64,000 nucleotides of DNA from Dehalococcoidia bacterium (GCA_963665775.2 CAXXTF010000002.1:1-64000); one strand, 5' to 3'; numbered from the stretch's first letter, positions 2,065 to 17,187 are shown. Notes: generated by a model from the sequence alone, not told the origin. Made by a program: numbers and translations.

Positions 2065-2360
2065 AGCTTGCCGGCGGCCCAGAATTTTTCCGGTTCGAAT
2101 TGGTCGGAAATTTGGCCGGAAAGCGATTAACCTTTCTCCCCGTGTGAGCGTTTTGGTAAATCAGAGTCAGTAATAGTGTAGCGCTTTGACGGGGAGAGTG
2201 AGCCTTCAAGCCAGGTCCTCTGAGATTGGCGAGAGGTTGGTGCTCAGGGCTTGACAGGGGAACCATTCACTCCGTAATATCGCCAGCGATAGCCTTAGAG
2301 GAGGGGCCTATTGTTTAGAGCTACCGATATACACGACACAATTCATATCAGGAGGGCAAA

Positions 2361-5300
2361 ATGACAGTTGCAGCCCCCAGATCTGGCCGCGGCAAGCTCA
2401 CGCTTGTCTTAATTGCGTTTGCGGCCTTGGTGGCGGTGGGCTTCGCCTTGGTGAGCGTCTTTCAGGCGCGAGCCGCGAACCATGAACCCGACGTGGGCGA
2501 CCTCGTGTCCGTTCCCGATCCGGACCACTGGAACGTCATTGGGTCGGACCATTATCTGTGCGTGGTGGACGTGGCGGACGCGGACGCGGACGTTACGGTT
2601 GTGCGTGTCAGGATGACGGAGCAGAACGGCGCCAACGCCGCCTGGACCGGTAATGTCACCAAGGACGTAGATATGGTGGGAGATACAAACATTGATGACC
2701 TCTGCGTCAGCATCCGGTCAACCCAGCCGGGTGAGACGGTGCAGGCGACGATCGAGTACTTGGACGATTCCGTCCTTGTGTCGGCCGCCGGCTTCTTTAT
2801 CAAGGAGTGGAGCGAGCTGACGGACTCCGTCATCATTACTGGTGACGGTAGTGGGAGCGCCAAGAATCTTAATAGCATCGGATGGCAGCACGATAACGAT
2901 GTCCAGGACACGGTGCTATCGAGGAGTGTTGGCTCCCACGTGGACCTCCTTGCGATCGCTCACGGCGAGCACCAGACCGAGGGTAGCGACCCGGACCCCG
3001 GCGGCATTCCCGGCTTCGTGGCGGGGCCCGGCGGCCTCGTCCACGTCGACGTGGACCACGCCGCTGTGGATGTCCAGTTGGTTAGTCCCCGAGGCTGCAC
3101 TACCTACGAAGTCTCCAATCAGGGGTTTACGGGCAGGGTAGGCAACCTCGCCCACGGCGGCGTGCTGATCACCCTTTGGAATGACTGCGCCGAGGTCGTG
3201 TCAGTCTGGATCAATGAGACCTACCCCAATCCCGTGGCCTCTGCGGTCGAAGATATCGAGCAGCACATAGTTATCGAGTTCGGAGAGGGCCAGAGCGCCA
3301 AGCAGCCGCAGTTCCGATGGAAGGGCGAGGACATCGTCTTGGCCAAGCAGTGGCCATCCAGTGAGTGCAGTGTAACCCAAGGCGGCGAAGGTTCCCTGCA
3401 CTTCTTCGCCAGCCAATTCGTCCGCCTGCCTAGCTCAACGGCTACCGGCGGCCTGATCACTGGCTTGAACGACGACGTCCAGATGGACCTGGACCTCGGT
3501 CCCCTCGTTATTGACGCGGCGGGACTCATTGACATCCTGCATGTCGTGGAGAACGACAGTCCGCCCAACAACGTGTGGGCGCTGGTCGATCCAGATACCT
3601 GCGTGAGCAAGGCCCTAGCGACCAGTGAAGAGGGTGGCGAGGGCGACTTCGAGGCGATCCTGTACAACTTCTCAGTTGAGCTGTCGATTACTGAGAGTTC
3701 AGTTGAAGCGATAACCGAGATCAACAGGACAGTTGTGGACCAGCACGGCTTCAACGTGCTGTGGCTGCAGCTCGAAGACATCAACCTCCACATCCTTCCT
3801 GGTGATGGTGGTCACACCAACGACTACCAGAGTGACGGTACGGCTGAGGACTTCGACGTCGATTCCGACTACGACGCCGGCGATCCCACCTCGGGCGAGA
3901 CGAGCGATGAGGGGGTGTTGTGGGCTGACCAGCTGCTGCGGGCGAATGTCCGGGGCTGGGTTGTGATGAGCACGAAGTGCAACAACGACCAGCGGGCCGT
4001 GGACCACGACAACAACGATGCCACTGTGGAGATCCTCTACCCGCAGGGCCGGTGCATAATGCCGGATGACTTCGTGGCGGTGTTCGGAGCTCTTCCGCTG
4101 AGCGTTGGTGACGTGCTATACGGCCCAGGCGACGACATCGATTGTGGCACTACTGACGATGACGACGATGAGGATTGCGGTCTCATAGGAGAGCTTGTGG
4201 GCCCCAAGCACACGCTTGATGATCCCCACATATGCCCAGAATCATTCTCATCGGAGGATGATCCTCCTGGCTCCACGGTCTGCCCGAGTGGCGAGATCAA
4301 CATCTACGACATGCTTATGCCGCCGCTGCAGATCCACTGGGATCTGAGCGGAGCGGGGTTCTTCAAGCCAATCTTGAAGCACGAAATCGACCAGTTCAAC
4401 AACGGCGAGAAGCCGTACTACAGTATCCTGGTTCCGGCGGACCCGGAGATCCCGTCATCGGTGAACAACGGTGGGTATCTGTGGGACACCTTCGGGTGGA
4501 TCGGTGATCCAGACGGTGAGTACGACTTCTACCTGCCGCTACCGGGCAGTGACCAGGGCTCGCGGGCGCTCGACCTGATCACCTACTCGGACAACTCTGG
4601 GCAGTCGTTCGTGGTACTGAACCGGGACTACAACCTGGACTACTCCGGTTGCGACACCGATACGCTCAGGGGTTCTCCGGTGTGCGATGTCGGCGACGTG
4701 GTGGGGACAACAAACGCATGGGTAACGGGTGACTACCCGTACTTCCGTGGCAAGAACCCGCCGGTGCAGTCCAACACCATAACCAAGACGGGGATCTGGG
4801 CCGGCTACAAGCGGGTGACCGTTGAGCCGGTGGCCAATGACCCGAACCACACCTACGTAGTGACACACCTGCTTGACCGCGACGGCGAGTGCGACGGCAA
4901 GTGGGACGGGAACGATCCTCTGAACCACTACGTCCATCTGGAGCCAGTCGACTTCGGGATCAGCGGTGACGGCGTCATTATCAATGCCGCCGTTGACGTC
5001 ATCATCTTGGGCATCCCGTTCAGCCGGGCCACGGCCTTGGCGGGCGACGCCGATGACCACGGCGGCGACCTACCGTTCGCGGATGCCGGCGAAGCCGATG
5101 AGTGCCAGGCCTGGATCCTGGTGGAGCACGGCGTGGACGCCGATGTTCAGGTGTCGATACGCTTCCACGAGCCGGAGGGGGTCATAACCAAGTCTGTGCA
5201 GTTCCCCCAGGAGGAGGTCATCTGGGGCGACGTGGACAACGATGGTGACGTCGACGCCGTCGATGGCCTGAAGGTTCTGCAGTTCGTGGCGGGCTTGTCG

Positions 5301-5492
5301 GTAAGCACTGATCCGTCCATCGGCAGCACCATTACGCTGGTGGATGGTTCTGACCTGGAGGAGGTCATCTGGGGCGACGTGGACAATGACGGTGACGTCG
5401 ACGCCGTGGACGCGCTGCAGATTCTGCGGTACGTGGCTGCCGGAACCTCTGATACAGATCCGGCAATCGGCGAGAACGTGACGATACTTTAG
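2361..5492 (+). CDS. Large secreted acidic protein with C-terminal dockerin domain; candidate surface/S-layer protein
   Basis: SD AGGAGG; signal peptide ending ARA-A; Asp/Gly/Val-rich body with scattered Cys; two WGDVDNDGDVDAVD(G/A)L..L..VA Ca-loop-helix repeats. Confidence 0.8.
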   Translation: MTVAAPRSGRGKLTLVLIAFAALVAVGFALVSVFQARAANHEPDVGDLVSVPDPDHWNVIGSDHYLCVVDVADADADVTVVRVRMTEQNGANAAWTGNVTKDVDMVGDTNIDDLCVSIRSTQPGETVQATIEYLDDSVLVSAAGFFIKEWSELTDSVIITGDGSGSAKNLNSIGWQHDNDVQDTVLSRSVGSHVDLLAIAHGEHQTEGSDPDPGGIPGFVAGPGGLVHVDVDHAAVDVQLVSPRGCTTYEVSNQGFTGRVGNLAHGGVLITLWNDCAEVVSVWINETYPNPVASAVEDIEQHIVIEFGEGQSAKQPQFRWKGEDIVLAKQWPSSECSVTQGGEGSLHFFASQFVRLPSSTATGGLITGLNDDVQMDLDLGPLVIDAAGLIDILHVVENDSPPNNVWALVDPDTCVSKALATSEEGGEGDFEAILYNFSVELSITESSVEAITEINRTVVDQHGFNVLWLQLEDINLHILPGDGGHTNDYQSDGTAEDFDVDSDYDAGDPTSGETSDEGVLWADQLLRANVRGWVVMSTKCNNDQRAVDHDNNDATVEILYPQGRCIMPDDFVAVFGALPLSVGDVLYGPGDDIDCGTTDDDDDEDCGLIGELVGPKHTLDDPHICPESFSSEDDPPGSTVCPSGEINIYDMLMPPLQIHWDLSGAGFFKPILKHEIDQFNNGEKPYYSILVPADPEIPSSVNNGGYLWDTFGWIGDPDGEYDFYLPLPGSDQGSRALDLITYSDNSGQSFVVLNRDYNLDYSGCDTDTLRGSPVCDVGDVVGTTNAWVTGDYPYFRGKNPPVQSNTITKTGIWAGYKRVTVEPVANDPNHTYVVTHLLDRDGECDGKWDGNDPLNHYVHLEPVDFGISGDGVIINAAVDVIILGIPFSRATALAGDADDHGGDLPFADAGEADECQAWILVEHGVDADVQVSIRFHEPEGVITKSVQFPQEEVIWGDVDNDGDVDAVDGLKVLQFVAGLSVSTDPSIGSTITLVDGSDLEEVIWGDVDNDGDVDAVDALQILRYVAAGTSDTDPAIGENVTIL
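5211..5410 (+). repeat. Duplicated dockerin segment (147-bp period)
   Basis: gaggaggtcatctggggcgacgtggacaa... at 5211 and 5358. Confidence 0.9.
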
Positions 5493-5520
5493 GCCAGAGC
5501 AAAGAAGAGGAGGATAGAAT

Positions 5521-6237
5521 ATGAACAGTACATTGGTAATCCGAAGGGGGTCCTGGCTAGCGTTGCTAGCCGGGGCCACCCTCCTGGCCCTGGCCGCCTG
5601 GCTGGTGGCGACAGGGTCTGCGCGGGCCGACGTGACTTCGCTGGGGATAGGTTCTGCGACTGTAGCGCCCGGCGATGAAGAAGTTACGCTGAACGTAACC
5701 GCGCAGACGACTGGCTCTGGGATCGGCGCCTACACGGTAGACGTCCTTTACGACGGGGCGCTCGTGACCGCCACGGCGTGCACGTCGGCGGCGGGTGCCT
5801 GCAACACTGAGGCTGCGATCAACACCGTGCGGCTGACCGGTGCTTCCAGCGCCGGTCTGACCGGTGATGTGACCCTTGGTAGCATCACCTTCCAGGTGGG
5901 TACTGGTGAGGGTACAGCTGCACTGGGAGTGACCGTGGTGACGCTGGCCGATCCGGGACAGGTGGACCTTAGCGTGTCGCCGACGGACGGCACCATCACG
6001 ATCGTGGCGCCGACGCCAGAGCCAACAGCATCGCCAGAGCCAACGGCATCGCCAGAGCCAACGGCATCGCCAGAGCCAACGTTAGAGCCGACGGCAACGC
6101 CGGGCGGGCTTCCGCCAACGGGTGGCGCACCGGTGAATGGTGCTGGTTCGTCTGCGTGGCTGCTAGCCAGCGTAATCGGGCTGGGCCTGGCCGCGCTGGG
6201 CACCGGTGCTTGGGCGGTCGCCCGCAGGCAGCGGTAG
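5521..6237 (+). CDS. Single-cohesin cell-surface protein with Pro/Thr linker and LPxTG-type anchor
   Basis: Signal peptide (ARA-D); cohesin-like GSATVAPG..VTLNV...IGAYTVDVLYD...LGSITF..DGTITI; (PEPTAS)n linker; LPPTGG, hydrophobic helix, RRQR tail. Confidence 0.8.
   Translation: MNSTLVIRRGSWLALLAGATLLALAAWLVATGSARADVTSLGIGSATVAPGDEEVTLNVTAQTTGSGIGAYTVDVLYDGALVTATACTSAAGACNTEAAINTVRLTGASSAGLTGDVTLGSITFQVGTGEGTAALGVTVVTLADPGQVDLSVSPTDGTITIVAPTPEPTASPEPTASPEPTASPEPTLEPTATPGGLPPTGGAPVNGAGSSAWLLASVIGLGLAALGTGAWAVARRQR
6016..6081 (+). repeat. 18-bp tandem repeat encoding PEPTAS linker
   Basis: ccagagccaac(a/g)gcatcg x3 plus a partial unit. Confidence 0.92.
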
Positions 6238-6272
6238 AGCGCGACTAGCGCTAGAAGCTAGAGTTTAGCGAA

Positions 6273-6298
6273 AGGGGCCCCGGGTAACCGGGGCCCCT
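6273..6298. terminator. GC-rich hairpin between convergent genes
   Basis: aggggccccgg-gtaa-ccggggcccct, 11-bp stem. Confidence 0.7.
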
Positions 6299-6495: not shown

Positions 6496-8859
6496 CTAGG
6501 CCTCCGCCCAAGCGACGATCTCGCGGTCCCGTAGCTCCTCGATCTGCTCCGGCCCATAGCCGATCTCGGCCAGCAGGGCCGGGGTTGAGGCGCCCATGGT
6601 CTGGCAGACTCCTGCCGTGCCGGGCGTCTTCAGTAGGTCAACGTTTTGGCCATGCTGCTGAACGATCCCAACCTCCGGGTACGTGAAGCTGGTGATCGCT
6701 CGGTCGCTGCCACCGTCCCAGGCATCCAAGACGAAATCGGACCATGTCTCGCTGGCAACGACGCAAGGCACATCCTGAGCCTGAAATATCTCCTCCCATT
6801 CGCGGGCCGTGCGCTCTGTGAACAGCGGCCCCAGGAGAGCGACAAGCTCCTCCTTGTGGGCGCTGCGCGATTCGTTCGCCTTGAACCGCTGATCGTCCTT
6901 CCAGGCGTTCCGGTCGGCGGCGTCGCAGAAGTGCGACCATTCCTCCTCCGTCAAGGCCGCCAGAAACACCCAGCCGTCCTTTGCCCGATAGAGGCGGTAC
7001 AGTGGCCCCAAGCCGTACTGACCCTTGTCTGGGACCGGCCGCGGCGGTTTGCCTTCGTAGCGTATGAAGTCATCCGACAGAAGGTAGCCGGCGCCGCATA
7101 GCATCGTCGTCTCAAGGTACTGCCCCTCGCCGGTAAGGTCGCGGGCGCGGAGCCCCAACAGAATCGCCACCGCGGCGCTCAGCAGAGCGCTGTGGTCGGT
7201 GGTCTGTCGCTGTTGCGGTGGGTTGCCCTCGCCGGCCTGGAGGACCTCACCCCCCGCCATCGCCGAGATGAGGGCGTCGAAGGCCGGACGCTGTGCGTCG
7301 GGCCCGCTGGAGCCGAAGGACGCGGCGTAGAGGTACACGAGGGGTGGGTTGATCTTCCGCAAGGTCTCGTAGTCCAGACCCAGCCTCTCAGGCACGCCGG
7401 GCCGGAAATTGTGCAGGAGCACGTCCGCCTTCTCTGCAAGGCGGTAGACAATATCCTTTCCCTCAGCCGATTTAAGATCGACGGCCAAGCGCTCCTTGCC
7501 TCGGTTGACCCGAAAGAAGAGTTCGTTGACGTTACGGCCCATCGGGTCGCCGTCAGGCGGTTCCACCTTGATCACCCTCGCCCCCAGGTCTGCCAGGAGT
7601 CCCGGTCCGCCGGGAGCCGCCGCCCAGGCGGCAAGATCGAGGATGGTGACGCCGTTGAGGGCACCATCGGGCAGGGGACCGTTGGAGGCACCGGACAAAC
7701 GGGCTGGAGCGGACTCCTCCGAAGTGGCGAGCGAAGACAACACCTCCTCCGTGTGCTGACCCAGCAGCGGCGCCGGACCCCTGGCCTGCCAGGTCTGTCC
7801 AGCGAAGGTCACCAGCGGCCCGATCTGCTCCGTTCTCCCCACCTGCGGGTCTTCGATTTCGATGACCTGGCCGTTGTGGCGCACCTGGGGATAGTCCATG
7901 AACTCCTGAGTGGTCATGAAGACGCCATAGGCGGCGTCGTGCTCTTCGAAGAGTTTGATCCACTCCTCCAGGGTCTTCTTCTTGTAGGCAGCGTCGATCA
8001 GGGAGATGAGGTAGTCCCTGTCCTCATCGCTCTTGAAGCGCGGCGCTCCGCCCGTGAAGCGTGAATCTTCGAAGTACTCCGTGATCCCAAGGGCGCGCAT
8101 CATGTTTGGGAATATGCGCGGATCGGCGGAGCTGCCGGACTGGATCCACTTGCCGTCATTGCACTGGGCGATCCGATAGCCGACGCCGACGTTGTGGGGA
8201 TCCCTGCCCTGAGTGTTGCTCAGCCGGCGGGTAAGCTCTGGGGTCTCGGCGCGAATGCCGCCGTACGAGTAGACGAAGTTAGCCTGGACCATGCTCGATT
8301 CGACCTTCTGGCCCAGGCCGAACTTCTCTCTCGCCCGGAGGGCGGACAAGATACCGATCAGGCCCAGGAATGATGCACCGAAGCTGCACTTGAAGATGGC
8401 GTCGTAGTGGGGCTCGTCGCCCCGATAGCCGTTCTGGATCACATGCTGGCCACACCTGGCCGCCACGATCCCCTCGTACGCTTTATAGCCGCGGTACTTG
8501 CCCCGCTGCCCGAACCCGGAGATCGACAGGTACACGAGGCCCGGATTCAGCTTCGAAAGCTCTTCGTAGCCGATGCCCAGCCGCTCGGCGACCCCCGGCC
8601 TGAAGTTCTCGATCACGACGTCGCAGCTGCGGGCCAGCGCCTGCGCCGCCCCACGGCCTTCCTTCGTCTTGAGGTTCAGGACGAGGCCCTTCTTGCCCCG
8701 GTTCCACTGAGGGAAGGCGGGCTTGCCCCGGTAGGACTCGCCGCCGGGCGGCTCCACCTTGATCACGTCCGCGCCATAGTCCGCCAGGACCATGCCGGGA
8801 ATCGCCCCGTAACCCTGACCGACGTCCAGCACCCGGATACCTTCACAGGCCAGCGCCAT
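6496..8859 (-). CDS. Tandem two-domain family III CoA-transferase (CaiB/BaiF)
   Basis: GIRVLD...LADYGADVIKVEPPGG...NRGK...ENFRPG occurs twice (second copy GVTILD...LADLGARVIKVEPPDGD...NRGK...HNFRPG). Confidence 0.93.
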   Translation of the reverse strand: MALACEGIRVLDVGQGYGAIPGMVLADYGADVIKVEPPGGESYRGKPAFPQWNRGKKGLVLNLKTKEGRGAAQALARSCDVVIENFRPGVAERLGIGYEELSKLNPGLVYLSISGFGQRGKYRGYKAYEGIVAARCGQHVIQNGYRGDEPHYDAIFKCSFGASFLGLIGILSALRAREKFGLGQKVESSMVQANFVYSYGGIRAETPELTRRLSNTQGRDPHNVGVGYRIAQCNDGKWIQSGSSADPRIFPNMMRALGITEYFEDSRFTGGAPRFKSDEDRDYLISLIDAAYKKKTLEEWIKLFEEHDAAYGVFMTTQEFMDYPQVRHNGQVIEIEDPQVGRTEQIGPLVTFAGQTWQARGPAPLLGQHTEEVLSSLATSEESAPARLSGASNGPLPDGALNGVTILDLAAWAAAPGGPGLLADLGARVIKVEPPDGDPMGRNVNELFFRVNRGKERLAVDLKSAEGKDIVYRLAEKADVLLHNFRPGVPERLGLDYETLRKINPPLVYLYAASFGSSGPDAQRPAFDALISAMAGGEVLQAGEGNPPQQRQTTDHSALLSAAVAILLGLRARDLTGEGQYLETTMLCGAGYLLSDDFIRYEGKPPRPVPDKGQYGLGPLYRLYRAKDGWVFLAALTEEEWSHFCDAADRNAWKDDQRFKANESRSAHKEELVALLGPLFTERTAREWEEIFQAQDVPCVVASETWSDFVLDAWDGGSDRAITSFTYPEVGIVQQHGQNVDLLKTPGTAGVCQTMGASTPALLAEIGYGPEQIEELRDREIVAWAEA

Positions 8860-15323: not shown

Positions 15324-15384
15324 GCATTTGACGTAAAGAATGCGGGTACCGTATCATCATTCAAAGGGCCAAAAAGGAGGAGTC

Positions 15385-17187
15385 ATGGACAACAATTACT
15401 GGGCACGATACTGGCGTAACCGTCTGACGCGCCGAACCCTGCTGCGGACCACCGCGGTCGGTGCCGGCGGCCTCGTTACGGCGGCGGTCGTAGGCTGTGG
15501 GGACGACGAAGAGGTGCCGGGGGCGACTACGCCTGCCGCAACGACCCCGGGCGCCACGGCTACCCCCGGCCCAACTGCCACCGAGGCCCCACCGGCGGTC
15601 ACGCGGGGCGGAAGGTACATTACCGGCGGTTCTACTCGGAGCCCCACCACCACGGACCCTCATAAGAAAGGCGGCAGTGCCTACAGGGCCACCGTGAACA
15701 GCCGTCTGTTCACTCGGGAGACTGGCCCAGACTTCGAGTTATGGGGATCGCCGGGCGTGCCAGACGCCGTCGACACGTTCGAGCAGCCCGAGCCCACTGT
15801 CCTCATCGTGAAGCTCAAGCCTAACGTCCTGTTCGGCCATCCCATCAGCCGGGCCATGACCGCCGACGACGTCATCTACTCCTTCAGCCGTTACACCGGT
15901 GGCATCGAGGGGGTTCCCGAATCACCGGAAGGGGGAGCTACCAAGAGGATCTTCAAGTCCTGGACCAAGATAGACGATCTCACCGTCCGCTTCGACTTGA
16001 AGCAGCCCCAGGCCAACCTACTCTACTGGATGTCGGCCAGCTACACCCCCTTCCTGATGCCCGAGAATGCTGACAAGCTGTACGATGTCGATAACGTGGC
16101 GGTAGGGTCCGGCCCCTGGCGTGTCCAGAATTTCACCAATGATGTCACCCTGGTATTAGAGCGGAACCCTGACTGGTTTGGCGGACCGGAAAGGCCTTAC
16201 CTGGACCAGACCGAGAGTCTCGTTTCGGGGGACTACACCTCCAGGTTGACCCAGTTCCTGGGCGGCAACTTTATGAGTCTGGTGAATGTCCCGGGTGGAG
16301 ACCTCAAGCGGCTACAAGATACGATAGAAGGTGTGCAGCTCATCCTCAACCTTGTAGGAGACCCGGTGAACATGAGCGGCCTAACCTTCTCCCCTGAGAG
16401 GATCACCCCGAACGCCCCCTGGCGGGACCCGAGGGTGCGTCAGGCAATCTCGATGGCAATCGACCGGGATGCCATGACCGAGGCCGCCTACGACATCTCG
16501 ATTCTGCAAGCGCGGGGCTTGGACGTCGAGGTCGAGTGGAACGGCTTCATCCCGGTGGCGATGCGGGAGTTCTGGAACGACCCCAAGCGGGTGGGGCCCA
16601 ACAAGATGGATCCGGAGTCGGCCCAGTACTTCGCGTACGATCCGGAAGGGGCCAGGAACCTGCTAAAGGAGGCCGGCTACGAGGGCGGCTTCAGTGGCGG
16701 GCCCTTCTGGTACATCAACATCTTCGGCCCGGGCAGCATCACCATAGCCGAGCTGACCGCCCAGTACCTCGCCCAGGTCGGGATCAACTTCGACCTCAGC
16801 GTCGCCGACTACCGCGGCTACTACGTGCCCTCGATCCGCAACACGGGTGATTACGAGGGGATGGCCTTAGTGCCATTCGGGACGTTCGGGGAGCCAGGTG
16901 AGGTGCTGGTCGGGATGTACGTCCCCGGCGGCAACCGTAACAACGGCCAGATCGATGACCCGGTGCTGACCGCCCAGATCTCAGACATCGAGCAAGATCT
17001 GGACCCGCCGTCCCGGAGACAGAAGATTCTCGACCTCCAGAACGACCTCGCTCTTAAGATGTACTATGTGCCGATGCAGGCAGGGGCGGCGCCGGTGGCC
17101 ACCGCCTACCAGCCATATGTACAGAACGCAGTCACACATATCAGCCGGCAGGCCTATAACAATTCCTACTATTGGCTCGACCTGTAG
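15385..17187 (+). CDS. Family-5 (peptide/nickel) ABC substrate-binding lipoprotein, TAT-exported, orphan
   Basis: SD AGGAGG; LTRRTLL twin-Arg motif, VVG-C lipobox, TADDVIYSF, GSGPW, DPRVRQAISMAIDR. Confidence 0.9.
   Translation: MDNNYWARYWRNRLTRRTLLRTTAVGAGGLVTAAVVGCGDDEEVPGATTPAATTPGATATPGPTATEAPPAVTRGGRYITGGSTRSPTTTDPHKKGGSAYRATVNSRLFTRETGPDFELWGSPGVPDAVDTFEQPEPTVLIVKLKPNVLFGHPISRAMTADDVIYSFSRYTGGIEGVPESPEGGATKRIFKSWTKIDDLTVRFDLKQPQANLLYWMSASYTPFLMPENADKLYDVDNVAVGSGPWRVQNFTNDVTLVLERNPDWFGGPERPYLDQTESLVSGDYTSRLTQFLGGNFMSLVNVPGGDLKRLQDTIEGVQLILNLVGDPVNMSGLTFSPERITPNAPWRDPRVRQAISMAIDRDAMTEAAYDISILQARGLDVEVEWNGFIPVAMREFWNDPKRVGPNKMDPESAQYFAYDPEGARNLLKEAGYEGGFSGGPFWYINIFGPGSITIAELTAQYLAQVGINFDLSVADYRGYYVPSIRNTGDYEGMALVPFGTFGEPGEVLVGMYVPGGNRNNGQIDDPVLTAQISDIEQDLDPPSRRQKILDLQNDLALKMYYVPMQAGAAPVATAYQPYVQNAVTHISRQAYNNSYYWLDL

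Follow-up and report, generated by a model that had tools for sequence, protein, structure and literature searches.

A probable two-gene surface-display module, with a sortase-type cohesin anchor and a dockerin-bearing acidic protein, in a Dehalococcoidia bacterium

Introduction

How might a large acidic secreted protein be held at the surface of a Dehalococcoidia bacterium, and does the small protein encoded directly behind it serve as its anchor? The question is raised by two adjacent genes, ORF A and ORF B (ORF, open reading frame), at positions 2361-6298 of a 64,000-nucleotide stretch of DNA from a Dehalococcoidia bacterium (GCA_963665775.2, CAXXTF010000002.1:1-64000), the whole of which is called the window here. 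A preliminary description, made from the sequence alone, had read the two genes as a minimal non-cellulosomal cohesin-dockerin pair, in which a sortase-type anchor tethers a structural surface or S-layer (lattice-forming coat) subunit. We found that they probably constitute a two-gene surface-display module of a sortase-type cohesin anchor and a dockerin-bearing cargo, a reading to which we assign a probability of about 0.7. The data show how the two genes are built, what both domains are, that ORF B has a sorting signal, that the genome has sortase and peptidoglycan genes, that the two genes are adjacent in relatives as well, and that the locus is present in RNA-library contigs; binding, cleavage by sortase and the function of the cargo are inferred.

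Results

ORF A (2361-5492) encodes a predicted secreted acidic protein of 1043 residues with a dockerin at its C-terminal end, and ORF B (5521-6237) a predicted cohesin anchor protein of 238 residues; these and all features of the locus given below lie on the plus strand. The cohesin domain of ORF B occupies residues 37-165 (5629-6015) and contains two conserved cysteines, C87, which is nearly invariant, and C94, which is invariant. A collection of 5.8 billion proteins yielded 32 homologues of ORF B, which share an architecture of signal peptide, domain, Pro/Thr linker, xPxTGG motif, hydrophobic stretch and basic tail, with C94, G107, G112, P198 and W231 as invariant columns. The Pfam Cohesin family (PF00963) was matched by 24 of the 32 homologues at E values up to 0.01 (best 1.2e-11), and a PDB search with the ORF B family profile gave matches to 12 cohesin chains at E values of 1 or less (6kg8_A being the best, 9.5e-7). 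The AlphaFold2 (AF2) model of ORF B had a mean predicted local distance difference test (pLDDT) score of 81, with block means of 92-98 across residues 41-170. When this model was compared with the PDB by Foldseek, 77 matches were obtained at E ≤ 1e-3, and all among the matches listed were cohesins. The template-modelling (TM) score to the target was 0.65-0.79 in the top rows, as exemplified by 6kge_A (E 1e-9, TM 0.77, root-mean-square deviation (rmsd) 2.1) and 2xdh (E 8e-9, TM 0.79). By family profile and predicted fold, the domain of ORF B is a cohesin. It is followed by a Pro/Thr/Glu-rich stalk of the type (PEPTAS)n at residues 164-196 (6010-6108), which showed low pLDDT and no secondary structure in the model.

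The counterpart lies at the C-terminus of ORF A, where residues 953-1036 (5217-5468) contain two repeats of a calcium loop and a helix, starting from residues 956 and 1005. The two loops are identical (GDVDNDGDVDAVD; residues 956-968 and 1005-1017, nucleotides 5226-5264 and 5373-5411). Both are EF-hand-like, of the DxDxDGxxDxxD type, and each is followed by a helix, in the tandem layout of type I dockerins; in the AF2 model the helices were predicted at residues 966-976 and 1015-1027. The repeats are 49 residues apart, with a predicted beta-hairpin in between. A six-frame scan of the genome scored the second repeat at 25.1 bits against Dockerin_1 (PF00404), above the cut-off of 22.9, and Dockerin_1 was also found in 7 of 30 ORF A homologues at E up to 0.001, with 5 of these above the cut-off. 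The modelled residues 950-1041 were aligned by VIA-align to solved dockerins over nearly whole chains (Z 7.1-8.2, rmsd 1.6-2.9). The best fold matches were 4dh2_D (Z 8.2, rmsd 2.0, 68/70) and 3ul4_B (Z 8.1, rmsd 1.6, 62/63), followed by 5m2o_B (Z 7.9) and 2ccl_B (Z 7.5). Sequence and predicted fold together indicate that the C-terminus of ORF A is a dockerin.

Whether the two genes belong together was assessed from their conservation. The body of ORF A (residues 1-960) was found in 20 of the 65 genomes of the order, the window's own genome (G000) included; the others were 7 of 42 genomes of the window's family (f1), 1 of 6 of family f3 and 11 of 13 of the sister family f5. In all eight f1 and f3 genomes that have the body (G006, G011, G013, G014, G017, G035, G037 and G045), it carries a dockerin or dockerin-like end and a cohesin-anchor ORF lies directly downstream. 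The tails of G035 and G037 were recognized as dockerin-like by eye only and did not match the repeat profile, and the G037 homologue of ORF A is in pieces. The downstream ORF in these eight genomes combines a cohesin with an xPxTGG-type tail, the motif being degenerate in G045. A paralogous pair is present in the window's genome as well (C1:771495-776222; loci L015 and L101). Its large protein shares 52% identity with ORF A over the last 400 residues, and its cohesin anchor, of 224 residues (C1:775521-776222), ends in an LPPTGG tail. The alignment of the paralogous large gene with ORF A runs across one in-frame TAG (C1:772998-773000), which may represent a pseudogene, an assembly error or read-through. 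The conserved adjacency, which agrees with the synteny anticipated by the preliminary description, is the best evidence that ORF A and ORF B are a candidate cognate couple. Complex prediction with cohesin residues 36-166 and dockerin residues 950-1043, run without controls, returned 0.31 and 0.30 against a mark of 0.32 and is no evidence either way.

One of the eight relatives showed a further peculiarity. The frame of G017 that holds a truncated body homologue and the dockerin (L125:4217-6607) starts with a phage-integrase domain (133.8 bits), and a mobile element may have cut the body gene there.

A different arrangement was seen in the sister family f5, where, in the fetched stretches of 12 loci from 10 genomes (G052 left out), the body had no dockerin and no cohesin was nearby. 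The f5 body ends in a conserved tandem module or, in one case, in a direct transmembrane tail with RRRR. At two f5 loci a three-gene group stands 3' of the body (L116:6397-8669 and L119:7212-9343), consisting of a small secreted LPPTG/APPTG-tailed protein, its paralogue with a plain transmembrane tail, and a sortase. The small protein resembles ORF B in the tail only (hhalign probability 89%, columns 174-212). From one lineage to another, then, this body is joined to different parts for wall attachment, which fits a displayed cargo with an exchangeable anchor.

The tandem C-terminal module of f5 is about 2 x 75 residues long (L116:5700-6290 in G057; also L119 and other f5 loci) and also ends a neighbouring CAP-domain protein. 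It had 11 matches in G057, 42 in G055, 15 in G051 and 10 in G058, with none in the window's genome, and no Pfam or NCBIfam match was found for it. Judged from its sequence, it looks like an undescribed surface-attachment tag.

The manner in which ORF B could be attached was then sought in its C-terminal tail. The sorting signal (6109-6234) consists of LPPTG at residues 197-201, a spacer of 11 residues, a hydrophobic helix at 213-234 and RRQR at 235-238. ORF B has the LPXTG layout, in which the motif is followed by a hydrophobic segment and the protein closes with basic residues; its core is LPPTGG. Among the 32 ORF B homologues P198 is invariant, and T200, G201 and G202 are kept in at least 90%. 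We searched all stop-to-stop ORFs of at least 60 residues in the genome by pattern, and nine of 20,861 have a C-terminal (L/V)PxTGG that a short spacer separates from a hydrophobic stretch with basic residues behind it; a tenth match was of another kind. Three Spondin_N proteins, one DUF4331 protein and one immunoglobulin (Ig)-like protein are included in the Pfam content of the nine. One clear sortase was present in the genome (C2:1116237-1116680; 255 residues, with an N-terminal membrane helix and a TLITC motif), scoring 69.5 bits against PF04203 and passing the general model TIGR01076 (42.4 vs 39.35). Sortases were present in 59 of the 65 genomes of the order. On these sequence grounds the tail of ORF B is a recurrent, putative sortase-type signal in a sortase-bearing genome.

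The preliminary description had left the acceptor of such an anchor open, on the ground that many Dehalococcoidia lack canonical peptidoglycan. This problem does not apply in the present genome, since a full set of peptidoglycan genes was found: four matches to penicillin-binding protein (PBP)-type transpeptidases, seven to Mur ligases (in six frames) and two to FtsW/RodA, several of them clustered in a dcw-like manner at C2:903-911 kb. A search of this genome, 91% complete, found no surface-layer homology (SLH) domain.

To place the pair in its genomic context, the cohesin and dockerin complement of the genome was surveyed. Three cohesins were detected, with no further ones at E up to 10, together with 19 dockerin ORFs. 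The pair thus does not stand alone, and the minimal system that had first been proposed does not hold. Dockerin loops free of Cys occur only in ORF A and its paralogue, and both of these adjoin the only two LPPTG cohesins. The other 17 dockerin ORFs have Cys in the loop, mostly in a D-x-D-C...PCPDIG pattern. Their Pfam domains were Trypsin_2 with fn3, Peptidase_S8, Peptidase_M23, weak M10, GSDH with a beta-propeller, Excalibur with GmrSD_C, CarboxypepD_reg, weak Abhydrolase_2, or nothing, and no glycoside hydrolase domain was found by Pfam in any of the 17. The pair is part of a cohesin-dockerin display system that is free of cellulases.

A second cluster of such genes was noted on the minus strand of the same genome (G000:C1:18002-22880; L016 and L128-L130). 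Its first ORF is Pro/Thr-rich and combines a dockerin with a membrane tail at the C-terminus; the second, of 238 residues, is an adaptor-like fusion of a cohesin (C1:19977-20693) to a Cys-type dockerin; and the third, a frame of 623 residues, has a dockerin and weakly matches matrixin (M10).

Cohesins of the ORF B family were found in 41 of the 65 genomes of the order (34 of 42 in f1), although some of these matches cover the sorting tail only. A scan of species-representative genomes, made with an 8-row alignment, gave 64 loci, of which 46 are from metagenome-assembled genomes (MAGs) labelled Dehalococcoidia, Chloroflexota, Chloroflexi or Chloroflexia and 18 carry a Clostridia label. These loci include ORFs with two or four cohesins as well as cohesin-dockerin fusions. 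In eight cases (L018, L023, L024 twice, L026, L028 twice and L038) an ORF of 851-1484 residues with dockerin repeats lies directly upstream of a single-cohesin ORF, and Pfam Dockerin_1 was found in seven of the eight, not in L023. The cargoes in these cases were beta-helix, SpaA_4 or nothing beyond the dockerin, and none is homologous to ORF A. Single-sequence and profile searches found no ORF A body beside the cohesins in the 46 Chloroflexota loci.

The body of ORF A spans residues 39-952 (2475-5216) and is a predicted beta-sandwich array of an uncharacterized Chloroflexota family. It is preceded by a signal-peptide-like N-terminus (residues 1-38, 2361-2474) that was read from the translation and has a basic n-region, a hydrophobic core and ARA before ANHEPD; the AF2 model places a helix at residues 12-30. 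ORF A has a mass of 108 kDa, an isoelectric point of 4.05, 16 Cys and an Asp content of 12.0%, which is higher than in 99.7% of the 1444 genome ORFs of at least 300 residues. A phmmer search of 1.84 billion representatives gave 713 matches at E ≤ 1e-3 and 41 at ≤ 1e-30. The homologues are all named 'hypothetical protein' at the source and come from Dehalococcoidia or Thermoflexaceae MAGs. The 30 homologues scanned with Pfam showed, besides the seven with Dockerin_1, DUF11 (2), TSP_3 (2), DUF7507 (1) and Cohesin (1), the last in the 1892-residue P0047. Calcium binding by the cargo is suggested by its richness in Asp and by the TSP3 repeats of relatives.

No Pfam family other than Dockerin_1 was found for the ORF A body at E up to 1. 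NCBIfam gave no family for ORF A, its paralogue, one relative or the Cys-type dockerin proteins, and no 'flexitail' model was matched; PHROGs had none for ORF A or ORF B. The ORF A family profile found no match among PDB sequences, and neither residues 40-950 nor residues 560-950 gave a usable match in the protein atlas. Modelled as a whole by AF2 (pLDDT 78.8, predicted TM score (pTM) 0.68), ORF A is almost entirely beta. With this model Foldseek returned only long arrays of Ig-like or macroglobulin-type (MG) domains at TM 0.1-0.16, SbsB being in the list, while the matches of residues 46-312 in VIA-align were Ig-like domains of SbsC, filamin and intimin, with Z values of 7-9 that count as middling by the tool's own grading. 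The best-conserved core of the body, residues 560-950 (4038-5210), contains the conserved columns Y742, D744, N745, G747 (invariant), D839, R840, D841 and G842. Most likely, the cargo has a structural or adhesive role and is not an enzyme, which is in line with the earlier view that it has no recognizable catalytic motif.

The gene signals are those of a compact unit. ORF A and ORF B have the same orientation and are separated by 28 bp, and Shine-Dalgarno-like sequences precede both, AGGAGGG (2350-2356) before the ATG of ORF A at 2361 and GAGGAGG (5507-5513) before the ATG of ORF B at 5521. A GC-rich hairpin is located 3' of ORF B at 6274-6297. It reads GGGGCCCCGG-GTAA-CCGGGGCCCC, with an 11-bp stem, followed by GGGCATTTTGT, and its folding energy was -32.8 kcal/mol (z = -3.81, with none of 200 shuffles as stable). 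The T-run behind it is short (4 T only), and the hairpin is likely the terminator of the ORF A/ORF B unit. All parts that the preliminary description had named in the two genes and around them, from the Asp-rich secreted protein with its two loop-helix repeats to the signal peptide, beta domain, PEPTAS stalk and LPPTG-TM-RRQR tail (TM here meaning transmembrane), could be located by position or residue.

Of 20 runs found to contain the stretch, 6 are RNA libraries; contigs were placed from four metatranscriptome runs, all of one study. The junction between ORF A and ORF B was bridged by contigs in all four runs (X4, 2247-6057; X14, 2281-6043; X6, 2990-6057; X13, 5043-6043). The 3'-most RNA-library contigs stop at 6263 (X4) and 6243 (X6), just short of the hairpin. 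Contig cover in the four runs extends over 2182-6263, with 668-2001 and 6671-8004 bare, a bareness that was not counted as evidence of high expression or against carried-over DNA. The contig ends and the bridged junction are compatible with one transcription unit closed by the hairpin. A promoter-like site at 2251-2280 is not taken as the promoter: one such site was found against 1.3 expected by chance, and the RNA-library contigs already start before it, at 2182-2247. Two runs with the label sponge metagenome, X19 and X20, contain no more than 0.12 and 0.07 of the words, and no habitat is derived from them.

Three other places in the window drew attention. At 22-162 the RNA-library contigs were very deep (mean word depth 289-567 in the first bin), and many distinct loose contig ends begin at 156-166, mostly at 160-162, like the edge of a repeated or widely shared element; no Rfam family and no tRNA was found in this interval. 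Near the contig start, at 859-2011, a 301-residue ORF with a KGGTGKTT Walker-A motif, ParA/MinD-like by eye, overlaps an 88-residue ORF. The 615-residue ORF at 15340-17187 appears by eye to be a lipoprotein solute-binding protein of an ATP-binding cassette (ABC) transporter, with a twin-arginine-like leader and a Cys after the signal. It lies under RNA-library contigs, which vary by indels of 15-18 bases in an Ala/Thr/Pro-rich linker at 15526-15537.

Discussion

The display module that we favour would work as follows. ORF B would be exported and its tail cut by a class-F-like sortase; joined to peptidoglycan in this way, the protein would present a single cohesin on a flexible Pro/Thr stalk. 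Export of ORF A would be separate, and its two-repeat dockerin would plug non-covalently into the ORF B cohesin with calcium. The outcome would be a 108-kDa acidic beta-sandwich array held at the cell surface.

Several observations weigh against this reading. When the proteins are scored singly by Pfam, both fall below the cut-offs, with 21.2 bits against 22.9 for Dockerin_1 in whole ORF A and 22.3 bits against 24.1 for Cohesin in ORF B alone, so that the membership of both domains rests on family profiles and folds. The Pfam Gram_pos_anchor model (PF00746) was reached by only 1 of the 32 ORF B homologues (E 0.0092) and had no match in ORF B itself. The spacer of 11 residues between LPPTG and the hydrophobic stretch means that cleavage of ORF B by sortase is not certain. 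Class F is the nearest class for the sortase, yet its score of 77 bits lies far below the 166 that this model sets as cut-off. Contigs that span both genes are no proof of a single transcript and give no expression level; the four runs belong to one study, and DNA may be carried over into an RNA library. The VIA-align matches of ORF A are concentrated on residues 46-312 and the dockerin, with the core at 560-950 hardly probed, where a hidden enzyme is possible. Lastly, with 17 other dockerin ORFs and only three cohesins in the genome, the ORF B cohesin may have other or additional ligands.

The last two of these points lead directly to alternatives. ORF B could be a general anchoring scaffoldin that mainly serves the other 17 dockerin proteins, with ORF A as one of several ligands or none. 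The ratio of three cohesins to 19 dockerin ORFs speaks for this, as do cargoes such as Trypsin_2 with fn3, Peptidase_S8, Peptidase_M23 and GSDH, and the closeness in sequence of the three cohesins (ORF B shares 53% identity with the cohesin that is fused to a dockerin). The restriction of Cys-free dockerins to ORF A and its paralogue, beside the only two LPPTG cohesins, would argue for a dedicated couple; however, relatives with a nearly identical cohesin score have Cys-type dockerins on their ORF A homologues, and the difference between Cys-free and Cys-type is therefore no clear mark of specificity. The strict adjacency of cargo and anchor in 8 of 8 relatives and in the paralogous pair is harder to reconcile with a general anchor, which we regard as possible but the less probable account. 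That ORF A hides an active domain, making it an enzyme or a binding protein, is the least probable of the readings considered. The core at 560-950 does hold the most conserved columns of the family and was hardly reached by the fold comparison, but neither ORF A nor its family profile had a Pfam, NCBIfam, PHROGs or PDB-sequence match to such a domain, the 30 homologues showed only Dockerin_1, DUF11, DUF7507, TSP_3 and Cohesin, and the model is almost all beta-sandwich.

The two other alternatives concern how ORF A is held and what it builds. If the tail of ORF B were not processed by sortase, it would act as a C-terminal membrane anchor and ORF A would be shown at the membrane instead of on peptidoglycan. 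The long spacer and the single homologue matching the Pfam LPXTG-anchor model are in keeping with this, as are the degenerate motifs of some relatives (VPVVGG in G045, AEPDS or AEPGS in P0016 and P0023) and other cohesin ORFs in relatives whose terminal transmembrane stretch and basic tail are not preceded by the motif. We nevertheless consider it unlikely, given the conservation of P198, T200, G201 and G202 among the homologues, the same tail on eight unrelated ORFs of the genome, a sortase that is nearly universal in the order, and the combination of a sortase gene, a body gene and an LPPTG/APPTG protein in one cluster of the sister family. Still less probable is the S-layer subunit of the preliminary description, hung on the wall through ORF B. 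ORF A is indeed large, very acidic and secreted, its N-terminal Ig-like domains best match domains 4-5 of SbsC (Z 8.9, rmsd 7.2) and SbsB appeared in the Foldseek list, the genome as assembled is without SLH domains, and the locus was assembled from RNA libraries. The structural matches, however, are middling and generic, with filamin, intimin and complement MG domains scoring alike and Foldseek TM values of 0.1-0.16, and contigs cannot rank expression. A high Cys content is atypical of bacterial S-layer proteins, and ORF A has 16 Cys. The distribution of the ORF A body is also patchy, with members in only 7 of the 42 f1 genomes and in 20 of all 65, and a diverged paralogue with an in-frame stop exists. 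The S-layer assignment is not supported.

A broader version of the display module would make the ORF A body family a main envelope coat or adhesive layer of the order, held on peptidoglycan through exchangeable plug-and-socket parts, namely dockerin and cohesin in f1 and the tandem module with small sortase-anchored beta-domain proteins, encoded beside the body gene together with a sortase, in f5. We put this forward as a speculation that is unlikely to be true. If it were true, the f5 module and the small anchored protein would be a non-homologous counterpart of cohesin and dockerin.

The display module itself would mean that in uncultured Dehalococcoidia a connector of the cellulosome serves as a general way to hang proteins on the wall, among them an acidic protein, peptidases and others. 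This connector would be joined with sortase anchoring and peptidoglycan, in contrast to the wall-less picture derived from Dehalococcoides. The locus also points to an uncharacterized surface-protein family with several hundred members, and it provides a clean, testable candidate for a cohesin and dockerin that are cognate to each other, in a phylum new to such couples; studies of specificity could make use of it, and it could serve as an orthogonal connector. The literature covered, which excludes most subscription journals, contained no paper on cohesins and dockerins in Dehalococcoidia.

Among known systems, the type I complexes of clostridia supplied the best fold matches, those of Clostridium acetobutylicum CaCohA2-Doc0917 (6kgc-6kgf) and of C. 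thermocellum OlpA/OlpC (3ul4, 4dh2). As in dual-binding dockerins, the two repeats of ORF A are nearly identical as read from the sequence. Unlike in the clostridial complexes, sequence identity is only 13-31%, the repeats are 49 residues apart with a predicted beta-hairpin between them, and the anchor would be attached by sortase and not by SLH. Peer et al. reportedly described in 2009 (FEMS Microbiol Lett 291:1) that cohesins and dockerins occur in organisms without cellulosomes. One non-cellulosomal cohesin, 2xdh of A. fulgidus, is among the best structural matches of ORF B (E 8e-9, TM 0.79). What sets the present case apart from such precedents is a probable operon pair with a sortase-type anchor that is conserved across an order of Dehalococcoidia.

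The closest functional parallel is ScaE of Ruminococcus flavefaciens, whose gene we take to lie directly downstream of cttA. ORF B is likewise a small one-cohesin protein with a sortase signal, its gene adjoins that of a dockerin-ended protein, and its binding is putative. ScaE has a single cohesin and an LPXTG signal, is linked to peptidoglycan by sortase, and binds the dockerins of ScaB and of the non-enzymatic CttA, which is encoded in the same cluster (PMC2930009, PMC12484212). The differences are considerable. ORF A and ORF B come from Chloroflexota, and the labels that relatives carry point to the class Dehalococcoidia; the 17 other dockerin ORFs here include no glycoside hydrolase detectable by Pfam; and the ORF A dockerin is not preceded by an X-module and is joined to a body of an unrelated, uncharacterized family. 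The ORF B cohesin is moreover nearer to type I (6kge, TM 0.77) than to the type III cohesin of ScaE (2zf9: rank 30, E 2e-6, TM 0.51, rmsd 5.4). Since 2zf9 ranks behind many type I cohesins, ORF B, as judged from its predicted fold, is an analogue of ScaE and not its orthologue. Non-cellulosomal pairs and ScaE-type anchors are thus already known, and what is new here is their occurrence in Chloroflexota with an uncharacterized cargo.

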